A DNA stretch of 64,000 nt from NCBI GenBank assembly GCA_034780895.1, contig JAUZTB010000076.1:38944292-39008291 (forward strand), in the 5' to 3' direction. Position numbers and translations under genes: made by a program. The first letter of the stretch is position 1. The number at the start of each line of letters is the position of its first letter. The stretch comes from Rhynchobatus australiae (taxonomy: Eukaryota). This document shows, in pieces, positions 172-54,118 of this stretch. The notes beneath the pieces are model-generated. The model was not told the DNA's origin. It was given only the letters and a program-made list of their open reading frames with translations, and ran no database searches.

Positions 172-286
172 TCTCCACACAAATCCATTATAGAAGAAAG
201 ATTTCAGCTTGGAAATCCAGCTGGCCACAAAAGCTGGAATACAGGAACAAAGTGTGAAATGCACAGAACTTTACATGTTGTCCCAG
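172..286 (+). CDS. Candidate coding exon 1 of an unidentified multi-exon gene (SPHKSIIEERFQLGNPAGHKSWNTGTKCEMHRTLHVVP); in-frame ATG at 259 could be the start
   Basis: Open frame ending at donor CAG|GTAGTA in phase 1, which joins the 11804 exon (g|aa=Glu). The acceptor (gtccag at 169-171) is weak, so the 5' boundary is uncertain. Confidence 0.42.
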
Positions 287-823
287 GTAGTATTTGTATT
301 CCATGCTGACATCTCAACATAATAAGAACAGAAAAGGTTGGAAATACTCAGCAGACCAGGCTGAATCTGAGGACAAAGAACTGTTTCAGGCTGATGACCT
401 TCCATCAGAACTAGGAAATGTTATAAATGAAAAAAAGTTTGAAATTGCAAAGGTAAAGGGAAGGTCCTGTGAAGATCAGGAGAGACTGAATGATGGAAGT
501 GGTTGTGGTGCTGGATGAAAGAGTTGTAAAGATTGTAAATAAAAAATTATATTATCAGAGGAGAGGGAAAAAGTGAACACTGGAAGAGGGAGGTACAAGG
601 CTGAACTGGCTGTTTATCTGAAACTGTTTAGTTGTTGAATCATGCCAGAAGATGAAGTACTCTTCCTGAGCTTACATCGAGTTTTGTTGGACCAGTTCAA
701 GAAGCCATAGACTAATGTGTCCGAGTGCAGGTGGGATAAAGAATTAAAGTGACAGGCACCTGGAAATAAAGAATCAACCTTGCACATTGAAGGGAGATGT
801 TCTGCCGAGTGCTCACTCAGTCT

Positions 824-2189
824 CAAGTTGTCAAGTTTATTGTCATATGCACAACTGCGGCGAGGTACAGGTACAATGAAAAACTTGATTGCAGAAACAT
901 CATAGGTATGTAGATTCAAACAACACACAGACCATAAATTGCACATTAGTTAGTGAAATAAAAAAGACATTAGTGGGAAAAAAAAATTAGAGACAAGGCC
1001 ATGGTAGTGCAATAGGTGGTTGGTAGTGTTCTGTGCTGAGGTAGGATTAGGGTTGTGCGGGTCAGTTCAAGAACCTGATGGTTGTTCAAAAGCTGCTCCT
1101 GAACCTGGTTGTGTGGAACCACAGGCTTCTGTACCACCTGGCTGACAGTAGCAGCAAGAAGTGGGGATGACCCAGATGGTGGGAATCCTTGATGACAGAT
1201 GCTGCCTTCTTAAGACAGGCCTCATGTAGATGCTTTCAATGCTGGGAAGGGCTGTGCCAACCAGTCTGCATCCACTACTCTCTGCAGCTTCTTGCAATTC
1301 TGTGTGTTGGAACTGCAGTCCCAGGCCATGATGCAACCAGTCAGGATTCTTTCTACAGTGCACTTGTAGAAATTTGTTTGAGAATTTGGTGAAATGCCAA
1401 ATCTCCTTAAGCTTTTAAGAAAGTAGAGGCACTGATGCACCTTCTTCATGATTGCATCTATGTGCTGGGTTCAGGACAGGTCATTCAGGATGCAAATGCC
1501 CAGGAATTTGAAGCTACTAACTCTCTCCACCTCTGACCCACCAAAGAGAATTGGCACATGGTCTCCTGACTTACCTTTTCTGAAGTCAATGATTAGTTCA
1601 TGCTCAACATAAACAAAATCAAGGAAGTTGTTATTGTGGCAGCACTCAACCAGGTGTTTTATCTCACTCATCATCACCCGTGATAAGGCCAGTGGTGTCA
1701 TCGGCGAATTTGTGGGTAGTATTGGAGTTGTGCTTAGGTACAGAGTCATTGGAGTGAAGTGAGTAGAGCAGGGGGCTAAACACACAGCTTTGAGGTGCAC
1801 CTGTGTTGATGATCAGGGAAGAGGTGATGTTATTACCAATCCTCACAGATTGAGATCTGCCGATGAGGAAGTCAAGGATCTAGTAGCAAAGGAGGTTCAG
1901 AGGTCCAGGTCTTGGAGCTTGGTGTCAAGGTTGGAGAGTATGATTTTATTGAATGCCGAACTGTAGTCAATGAACAGCAGCCTGATGTATGTGTTACTGT
2001 TATCCAGATGGCCCAGAAGAGAGTGGCAAGCCAGTGAAATAGCATCTATTGTTGACCTGCTGTGGTGATAGGCAAATTGAAGTGGATCCAGGTCATTTCT
2101 GAGGCAAGAGTTAACTTGTGCTATAACCAACCGCTCGGAGCAGTTCATTACAGTGGATGTAAGTGCCATCGGGTAGTAGTCATTGAGGT
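824..2189 (-). mobile_element. 5'-truncated Rex1/Babar-clade LINE nested in the Penelope element
   Basis: Frameshifted [78 protein letters not shown]. The 3' end is a short AACTTGAC-type repeat at ~824-840. Confidence 0.9.
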
Positions 2190-2724
2190 CTTCACTTGAT
2201 TTCCCCAATGCATGGGGGAGCACATTGTTAACACCAAAGACCACATTCTGTATTGAAAGAAGTATTCTATACTTAAATAACCACTACATAGAAAGAGAGC
2301 TCATGTTCCAAGACCATGGGGAGGAAGGAGATAAAATGGTGGGTGTTGCATCTCCTGTGTTTGAAAGTACTGTGAGCAGGAGAGAGTAGGCTTTGGTGGA
2401 GATTGAACAGTGAACCAGAGCATCCTTTGGAATCCTGAAGGGGATGGGGAGAATAAGACATGCCTGGTGATGCCATCATGTCAGGGGTGTTGGAAAATAT
2501 GGAGGATGATCCATTGAATGTAGAGGCTGATGCATTGAAAGATGAGGACACAGGGAGCTATATCCCTGTTCTGGGTGAGAGGTAGAGGGAGGAAACAGAA
2601 TTGCTGGAAATGGAACAAATGTGATGGAGACCCTGTGAACTATGGTAGAGAGTAAACTGTGGTTGAGCAAAAGATCTATCAGAATCACTGATGTGAAAGG
2701 TGGCTTCGTCATGACATGCAATGA

Positions 2725-3082
2725 AGTTAGAATCAGAATTATTATCGCTGATTTATCACGGACAGGAAATTTGTTGTTTTGTGGCAGCAGTACAGTACAA
2801 AGACATAAAATTGCCAGAAGTTACAAACATAAATAGTGCAAAAAAAGGAACAACAAGGTAGCGTTCATGGACAATTCAGAAATCTGATGGCACAGGGAAA
2901 GAAACTGTTTCTGAGTTGTTGAGTGTGGGTCTTCAGCCTCCTGTACCTCCTGCAGCAATGAGAAAAGGGCATGTCCTGGTTGGTGAGGGTCCTTAGTGAT
3001 GGATGACACCTTCTTGAGGGCCACATCTTGAATATGCCCTTGATGGTAGGGAAGGTTGTGCCTGTGATAGAGCTGGCTGAGT
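2725..3082 (-). mobile_element. Rex1/Babar-type LINE 3' fragment nested in the Penelope element
   Basis: ITKDPHQPGHALFSLL and RRYRRLKTHTQQLRNSFFPCAIRFLN C-terminal motifs; ends in a TTCTGA-like tail. Confidence 0.8.
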
Positions 3083-4039
3083 CAAAGGAATTGGGAGAAT
3101 GGAATGGAGTCCTTATAGGATATGGGCTGTGATGAGACAAGGAAGCTGCAGATGTCCATGCACTTGTAATGGGTTCTGGTTACCAAGATATCCTGAAAAG
3201 TGAAGATAAAACAACTTGAGAAAGGAATGAGAAGATTTTAAAGCACACCATGTGAAAGTGAGAAAGGAATAGGAATTAGCAGTAAAAGTGATGAGACTTC
3301 CAAGTTCTTTACCAGAGCAGAAGAACATATTATGTTAATCAATGCCCTGGAAAAAGTTGAGGGAAAGGACCCGAGCAGGATGGAAACAGAATGCATCACA
3401 TATCCCACAATGAGACAACCATAGTTGGGACCTATATGGGTTCTATAGCTGCATTGTGCTACCCATTGGAGGAAGTGGGTAAAAGAAAAGGAGATGCTGG
3501 TCAAAGCTGGTAAGAATGACTATACCCAGGCGACGGTGTACAGGTGATGGTGCCTGGGATGGAGGTGAAGAGAGACAGGACATTTATAGTGAAAATAAGC
3601 CAGGAAGCTATTAAAATTGCAGAGGGCATCAAAATTTCACAGATGCAGCAGGGGAAGAGAAATATGCTCTGTGTGATTTGGGGTTGGAAGATGTGGAGTT
3701 AAGATCTCCAAAGGAAAGGAGGTCCACGATCACATGAGAGACAATGCCCTGAGATTTGGTGAGGCAGCCATAGTCCAGAGAAAGATATGAGAAGGTGTTA
3801 GACTGCAGTCAGTCTCTGCAAGGTGGAGGTCAGTTTTGCCAACAGCAATACTGCCTTTGTCAGCAGATTTGACAAGAGGTGGAGGCATGGTTGCAAAAGG
3901 ATCAAGGTTAAGAACCATGGTTTCTCTGCCATAAAGGGATATATATTTGTTGTGAACTGTATTAATTCTTTGAATGCTTACCTTTGCTAATTTACTGTTC
4001 TACAATTTAACAGAGTTTCCCAATCTACCAACATCAGCT

Positions 4040-52639: not shown

Positions 52640-53030
52640 ACAACTGTTGCTGAAACTCAGTTTTTCCCTCTCCACAGGTACTGATTATCCGATGAACATT
52701 TCCAGCATTTTCATTTGTTTCAGGTTTGAAATATAGCTCCAACCTCCGTTTTGCAGCTTTACATGTCCCCTTGTGGTTCACCCTCTCTTTCTTCCCCTAA
52801 CTTTTCTCATTAATCTGTTTGCTAGACAGCTCTGCAAACTGGATGATCCCAGCCTCACACTTTGGAGATATTCTGTTTGACCTATCCACCCTCCCTCAGC
52901 CTCTCTACAATTTAAAACTAACCTGCAGTATTTTCTTTCTTTCTTGGTCCTAATGAAAGGTCTTAAACCTGAAACGTTAACTGTTTCTCTTTTGGCAGAT
53001 GCTACCTGATCTGTTTTTCCAGCACTTTTT
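52640..53030 (+). mobile_element. Penelope terminal-repeat remnants (tandem) with decayed hammerhead at 52946-52983
   Basis: ggtc-CTAATGA-aaggtcttaaacct-GAAAC-gtt-aactg followed by cagatgctacctgatctg; an earlier tail copy lies at ~52650-52720. Confidence 0.6.
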
Positions 53031-53761
53031 CTTGCACGTATTACATATTTTCAACATGAAGTTTTATGATTTTCTATTCCCTCCCGGGCATGGCTCAAAA
53101 GTGTTATCAGCAGCCATGATGTAAAAAAAGAGAAAAAGTAAGTAATCAAACAAAATTATATACCATGAAGTGATTCTCCTCAAATCCAAGAAAAATGTTG
53201 GTCTTGAGACATTATTACATTTGCTCTCCACTGATACATTAGTGAATAATTGTGCCAAACAGTGTGGTACTGATCCATACTGACAAGAACATCCCTGATT
53301 GGACTGTTAGCCTGTATTAAGTTTATTATGCCAGCTGAGGTCCATAATTGTACTTCTATAATTCTGTTTGCCTGTGACCTAGTGTTGGGAACACAACACA
53401 TGGATGTCAGAGAATAACATAAGCTAAGCAATAATTTCCTTTATAGTCAAATAACCTACCAGCATTCATTGTTTGAGTCATACACGAGAAGTTACATACA
53501 AATATTAAAGAGTATAATAAGCTTTGAGCAACTTTTCCTTTCTCCGTAGAATTAACCTAGCTCATTGAATGTTTCTACTCTTAGCTGTTTTCCTTTTAAA
53601 TTGTCAACATATGCTGTATTTTTCCAAAACAAAAAGCTGAATTTCAAGTTTCCATTCACCTTTCTGAATGTTTGCTTCTGGTCAGTAGAGATCTATTGGA
53701 AAGCCCTGCAAAATGCTTTGAGAAGTTTTCTAGATAAGGATGTTTTATCAGTGCAGACTCT

Positions 53762-53910
53762 TGTTTTGATGAAAGATCATTGTTAGCCTGAAACGTTAAC
53801 TCTGTTTCTCTTTCCATCGATGCTGCCTGACCTGCTAAGTGTCTTCAGTAATTTTGTTGTTTTTAATTTCATTTCAGATTTCCAGGACCAGCAGTTTTTG
53901 GATTTTGTGT
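53762..53910 (+). mobile_element. Penelope terminal-repeat remnant with decayed hammerhead
   Basis: TTGATGA-aagatcattgttagcct-GAAAC-gtt-aactct..gatgctgcctgacctgctaagtg. Confidence 0.7.
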
Positions 53911-54065
53911 TTTTATTCCATGTTTAAAAATGGCAACATTCTAAGTGTGAGTAGCAATTACCTGAATTGTAAAGCAAAAATGTACAACTTTGAGAGTAAA
54001 AGAAAATCAAAATGATTCAATGCAATGTAAGATCAACATTGGAGAGATCCTCTTTTTACTTACAG

Positions 54066-54118
54066 GACATTCCTATGTATATCCTGCATGCATTTAATGA
54101 ACAAGCAATTATCAAATT
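54066..54118 (+). CDS. Candidate coding exon 7 (DIPMYILHAFNEQAIIK(L/F)); the gene likely continues beyond the window
   Basis: Acceptor ctctttttacttacag, donor ATT|GTAAGG. 53 nt, phase 0 to 2, stop-free in the frame of exon 6. Confidence 0.7.

Follow-up and report, generated by a model that had tools for sequence, protein, structure and literature searches.

A possible multi-exon coding gene nested antisense within a PDE4B intron of Rhynchobatus australiae

A 64,000-nucleotide (nt) stretch of the Rhynchobatus australiae genome (contig JAUZTB010000076.1:38,944,292-39,008,291, referred to here as the window) may carry part of a small, unannotated protein-coding gene nested within, and antisense to, the cyclic AMP (cAMP)-signalling gene PDE4B, whose intronic variants have drawn much attention in psychiatric research. 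We put the probability of this reading, in which the exon chain as drawn is partly wrong, at about 0.45. The existence of an uncharacterised coding gene here is thus plausible without being proven, and on the argument first offered for it in a preliminary description of the window the case is weaker than was supposed. If there is such a gene, most of the seven segments discussed below are likely to be its exons, with the exact chain probably in error at E3, E4 or E5.

The seven AG/GT-bounded segments (E1 to E7, Table 1) lie on the plus strand and were located by enumerating open AG..GT segments in the window DNA. Each is preceded by AG and followed by GT, and joined together they give 524 nt, or 174 codons, with no stop codon. 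This corresponds to the stop-free fragment of ~174 residues with compatible phases put forward in the preliminary description, all of whose segments were found and whose peptide agrees by eye. The segments had also been said to be unique and non-repetitive, and each region tested indeed matches itself alone in the 2.23-Gb genome, both in DNA searches (E1, E2, E3, E4, E5 and E7) and in protein searches (E1, E4 and E6), the latter revealing no retrocopy or paralogue. E2 was considered as sequence of a long interspersed nuclear element (LINE) and rejected because it is unique in the genome; a LINE remnant begins ~60 nt past its end. Broken LINE-type retrotransposon remnants occupy window positions 11929-15200, 19750-22300 and 25490-26000 and are high-copy in the DNA of a related genome; they contain frames resembling esterase, endonuclease and reverse transcriptase. 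The window has 23 runs of N, which together take up 3,971 of its 64,000 bases, and further exons could therefore be hidden.

The whole window (positions 1..64000) lies inside a single ~158-kb intron of PDE4B, as seen when 300 kb on each side was examined; the preliminary description had not recognised this setting. PDE4B exons on the minus strand flank it at +67 kb and -90.5 kb, so that the window is intronic and a plus-strand candidate is both nested in its host and antisense to it. The assignment to PDE4B is supported by the catalytic exon, which scores 123 bits against PDE4B compared with 117, 113 and 106 bits for PDE4A, PDE4D and PDE4C, and by PDE4_UCR profile matches on the minus strand at -167 and -190 kb. 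The PDE4B transcription unit thus includes the window, and in it long-form 5' exons, UCR1, UCR2 and the catalytic domain follow one another in the order given in PMC2929239. The candidate differs from its host in strand and in having no similarity to PDE4 in Pfam and PDB searches with its exons.

Several results weigh against a coding gene and favour a simpler account, in which ordinary pseudo-exons of the PDE4B intron were picked by eye for their protein-like reading and nothing is spliced; we consider this rather unlikely. The conflict-free phases that formed the main argument of the preliminary description carry no weight. The plus strand of the window holds 1,509 open, locally unique AG..GT candidates, 8.6e13 seven-exon chains with compatible phases can be built from the 926 unique open segments that reach the weakest splice score in the chain, and 38 strong segments alone still permit 1,200. 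Splice scores were calibrated on 15 PDE4B and LEPR exons chosen by eye, with approximate matrices, and are thus crude, but the chain total of 10.3 is far under the 57.5-76.5 of the best chains (18 of 18 tile-strands). Summed acceptor and donor scores for E1 to E7 are -4.6, -3.2, 4.5, -3.7, 3.1, 6.2 and 11.3, so that E1, E2 and E4 fall below all 15 true exons (2.8-14.6) and E3, E5, E6 and E7 lie inside their range. An eight-feature model places 15/15 true exons in the top 0.26% of pseudo-exons when each is left out in turn, whereas E1 to E5 rank at 1.7-16.5%, at which 20-192 equal or better pseudo-exons are expected per 64 kb. Elsewhere, many of the sites with top scores lack an open frame, the host intron shows no excess of plus-strand exon-like matches (10 of 45, compared with ~10.6 expected), and all of the homology searches described below were blank. 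The stronger acceptor 23 nt upstream of E5 yields an 81-nt exon with no open frame. Codon usage speaks for a gene, with a caveat: the codon-position score of the chain, 0.047 per codon, is close to that of true exons (0.051, as against 0.005 for pseudo-exons) and was reached by 80 of 3,000 random chains, but such scores are inflated because the segments were chosen for a protein-like reading.

Other features are harder to reconcile with chance selection. The acceptor context of the candidates resembles that of real exons and is unlike that of most pseudo-acceptors. An AG-free zone of at least 19 nt precedes all seven (19-70 nt in the 15 true exons, and at least 19 nt in 40% of 14,422 pseudo-acceptors), five of the seven have a zone of at least 33 nt (17% of pseudo-acceptors), and an upstream T fraction of at least 0.38 is seen in six of seven (13%). 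E1 has a long AG-free zone and a branch-like motif at -18, with a G+C content of 0.41 compared with 0.23 upstream; the corresponding values for E4 are 0.53 and 0.28. E6 and E7 approach the scores of real exons, since the eight-feature model ranks them against pseudo-exons at 0.34% and 0.46% from the top, and both occur in the top-scoring chain of the window. The view that exons 4 to 7 are the best supported thus stands for E6 and E7, which have the best scores, but fails for E4, whose codons are the least coding-like of the seven, and for E5 with its dominant rival acceptor. E2 has the most coding-like codons, E5 and E6 are also coding-like, and E3 falls below the control mean.

A further point against chance selection comes from 15-33 kb upstream of the window, outside the view of the preliminary description, where four segments with unique exon bodies, each entering and leaving in phase 0, carry the frame to a start codon. 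They emerged from a search of 60 kb of upstream DNA for plus-strand candidates passing on splice and base context only, in which five candidates were compared with 77 controls; this is the one comparison that the choice of segments in the preliminary description could not have biased. The five are more coding-like than the controls (p 0.009), and four of five have phase 0 at both ends compared with 15.6% of controls (p 0.0026). This comparison is post hoc, the pattern having been noticed before it was tested, and the p for the extension is about 0.003-0.06; moreover, in 6.5% of draws four candidates taken at random also chain into phase 0, the five candidates make no single complete chain, and the best-scoring fifth (L007:6397-6472) does not chain and lies partly on an old repeat that has 37 further matches, all of which counts against the extension. 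Although it is the strongest upstream 'exon', this fifth segment was discarded as coding evidence on account of the repeat. A candidate at -45434 was likewise discarded, being T-rich and having a stronger acceptor that leaves no open frame.

Adding the four segments to E1 to E7 gives an 11-exon model ~87 kb long with 707 nt, 236 codons and a stop, and with in-frame ATGs at codons 4 and 8. The upstream segments would supply the start, and E7 would run into the stop at 54120-54122, which directly follows it, such that E7 could be the last coding exon if read through (54066-54122). A stop at this position is expected from any phase-2 GTAA donor, and hence gives no independent support. The frame from ATG to stop is open but post hoc, and use of the stronger E5 acceptor breaks it with a stop at codon 190; E3 and E4 can be skipped together with the frame remaining open (184 codons). 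The model product has ~230 residues, a net charge of +5 and no hydrophobic segment, and its strongest amphipathic helix spans the E2/E3 junction. We note two very strong plus-strand splice pairs in the upstream DNA, at L007:6397-6472 (overlapping the old repeat) and L006:4521-4615 (with no open frame), which might represent 5' untranslated exons belonging to that transcript.

Table 1. Candidate exons and neighbouring features. Plain numbers are window positions and signed values are distances from the window; L- and C-prefixed coordinates are those of individual loci. Splice scores are given as acceptor/donor.
Feature	Position	Strand	Remarks
Candidate exon E1	172-286	+	115 nt, phase 0 to 1; scores -5.9/1.3
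Candidate exon E2	11804-11871	+	68 nt, phase 1 to 0; scores -0.9/-2.3
Candidate exon E3	15565-15599	+	35 nt, phase 0 to 2; scores 6.4/-1.9
Candidate exon E4	23666-23783	+	118 nt, phase 2 to 0; Cys/His-rich; scores -3.5/-0.2; doubtful
Candidate exon E5	29505-29562	+	58 nt, phase 0 to 1; scores 0.6/2.5
Rival acceptor for E5	29482-29504	+	23 nt upstream; score 10.8 compared with 0.6
Candidate exon E6	48237-48313	+	77 nt, phase 1 to 0; one of the two best
Candidate exon E7	54066-54118	+	phase 0 to 2; acceptor 10.4
Possible poly(A) signals if E7 is terminal	54303, 54898, 54935	+	weak; such hexamers are common in AT-rich DNA
Upstream exon-like segment	L005:6891-6935	+	45 nt, phase 0 to 0
Upstream exon-like segment	L003:517-558	+	42 nt, phase 0 to 0
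Upstream exon-like segment	L003:4185-4232	+	48 nt, phase 0 to 0
Upstream exon-like segment	L003:4613-4660	+	48 nt, phase 0 to 0; 380 nt from L003:4185-4232
PDE4B long-form 5' exon	~+67.4 kb (L012:3358-3594)	-	has paralogues lying 5' of each of the three remaining PDE4 loci (C70, C64, C78)
PDE4B 5' exon	+105 kb (L016:1326-1564)	-	paralogues at two other PDE4 loci
PDE4B first UCR1 exon	~-90.5 kb (L011:9306-9500)	-	matches PDE4B long form 4wzi, E 3.8e-13
Further PDE4B exons	L018:~5424; L034:523-705		
LEPR Ig exon	+310 kb		PF06328, E 2.7e-11

All 11 segments fall between the flanking PDE4B exons (+67 kb and -90.5 kb). It is conceivable that the strand has been misread and that what we see are conserved regulatory elements, or exons of PDE4B itself that went unrecognised on the minus strand. 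In favour of this, the segments form unique islands richer in GC, E4 has an open frame on the minus strand too, and PDE4B has many alternative 5' exons according to PMC2929239. The base pattern, on the other hand, is polarised for plus-strand splicing, with T-rich 5' sides and a T-poor body in E1 to E6, and under a narrow filter just one minus-strand ATG exon able to join UCR1 was seen, at 25075, with none on E1 to E7; we regard this explanation as most improbable.

In another alternative, some of the segments are exons of an antisense RNA that is indeed spliced, but this RNA is non-coding or comes from a decaying gene. The dominant acceptor at 29482 would then break the frame, and any protein would matter less than the transcript or the process of transcription. 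In favour are strong plus-strand splice pairs with no open frame at 29482, -45479 and -53426, together with a repeat-derived one at -53603, and the missing protein homologues fit. Human PDE4B-AS1 is a transcript of this sort (bioRxiv 10.64898/2026.03.31.715548). An 11-exon, 236-codon frame is not expected to survive in a long-dead gene, however, and E2, E5 and E6 are coding-like, such that we think this alternative unlikely.

Relatives of the candidate were sought with short single exons only, of 38-40 residues in the word-based and HMMER searches. Among proteins of 71-2000 residues no homologue was found by word matching, for which frames of 40 residues around E6, E1 and E4 served as queries, HMMER with E1 gave no match among 1.84 billion representatives, none of four in-frame exons or eight frames matched Pfam, and nothing credible was found in PDB (best E 2, with single-exon queries). 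Atlas searches were uninformative, with a first match of 0.77 for the E1 frame and no usable match for the E6 frame (recognition 1329 and 1395). Because all queries were single short exons, we estimate that relatives below ~60-70% identity would be missed. Three matches were rejected: a chance 9-residue match in a metagenome (L067), whose bacterial-looking frame continues past the exon into the intron, a Pfam YqiM match (E 0.1) to E4 read out of frame, and a PEX5 match to E4 (E 2). The matching introns of PDE4A, PDE4C and PDE4D (600 kb, 14% N) gave a best E of 0.14 with the 11 exons, whereas controls gave E 1e-11 to 1e-30. With no paralogous exons in the other PDE4 introns, a linkage older than the two genome duplications is not supported. 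No RNA run was listed for window positions 48100-54300, the stretch from E6 to E7, a blank that says nothing for or against expression. Contigs of the related genome covering E4 and E5 carry 48 differences in ~1,240 letters and 16 in ~740. Across 11700-29700 there are 45 insertions or deletions relative to its contigs, and among the differences listed (40 of 591, mostly from repeats) none lies inside an exon. The literature, in which coverage of subscription journals was thin, yielded no report of a nested gene in fish PDE4B.

Among the neighbouring features, a leptin receptor gene (LEPR) is present on the minus strand at +270 to +340 kb (L058:5804-6136 and neighbours), and PMC12284397 gives LEPR adjoining PDE4B as the usual order in jawed vertebrates. 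The paralogue of the PDE4B 5' exon at L016, at C78:13410111-13410305, sits in an unusually long open frame of 856 residues. Unique CpG-rich patches at ~+198.4 kb (L047) and ~-167 kb (L030) are probably PDE4B promoters, the latter coinciding with a likely short-form first exon. A 5' exon at +129 kb was tentatively assigned to PDE4B by a motif, and the 5' exons are presumably those of isoforms B1 and B3. Strong minus-strand exons beyond the end of PDE4B, at ~-297 to -298 kb (L043), probably mark the start of the next gene, which from the human gene order is presumably SGIP1.

Nested antisense genes are well known as a kind, and the kind itself is not new. PMC8467205 counts 296 human and 248 mouse simple nested opposite-strand protein-coding pairs, gives the opposite-strand share of simple nested pairs in these species as ~74-78%, and describes the internal genes as leaning to testis expression. 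The candidate resembles these in lying within one intron of a long host (here with host exons on the minus strand and the candidate on the plus strand), and having both positional features it may provisionally be placed in this class. It differs in that the mammalian nested genes of that survey are as a rule short duplicates that lack introns and whose parent can be recognised, whereas the candidate has 11 exons over ~87 kb and no parent or paralogue was found in the searches above.

Human PDE4B-AS1 (NR_123718.1) is described in bioRxiv 10.64898/2026.03.31.715548 as a testis-only antisense long non-coding RNA (lncRNA). It is antisense to the same host gene and differs in being non-coding. Some lncRNAs are fossils of lost protein-coding genes according to PMC5577775, a pattern that would apply if the fish locus were coding and the human one not; such fossils need an annotated coding orthologue in other vertebrates, and none was found here. 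PDE4B is not named in the supplement files searched of PMC5577775 and PMC10195156, which both survey lncRNAs that arose from coding genes since lost. That cartilaginous fishes keep an 11-exon coding gene of which human PDE4B-AS1 is the decayed descendant, an unrecorded vertebrate gene loss, is a very doubtful proposition.

A plausible scenario for the coding gene, should it be real, is that its transcription runs antisense to PDE4B, probably takes place in testis or male germ cells, and is separate from that of the PDE4B long forms; the tissue is suggested by analogy with the testis bias of mammalian internal genes and the restriction of human PDE4B-AS1 to testis. By the same analogy with mammalian nested genes, host and guest would be read in different cells or at different times, limiting collision of polymerases. 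The product would be a soluble, fast-evolving protein of ~230 residues that may act via the basic amphipathic helix across the E2/E3 junction. That this helix is a calmodulin-type or scaffold-binding segment is a guess, and an improbable one.

If the gene is not real, the window offers a clean example of why consistent phases along a chain of exons in a long intron are no evidence for a gene. If it is real, it would be a multi-exon orphan gene, absent from the protein databases searched and hidden antisense in a well-known signalling gene, and would allow a concrete test of a coding origin for the antisense lncRNA of human PDE4B. It would then also indicate that nested genes with tiny exons escape annotation in cartilaginous fishes.

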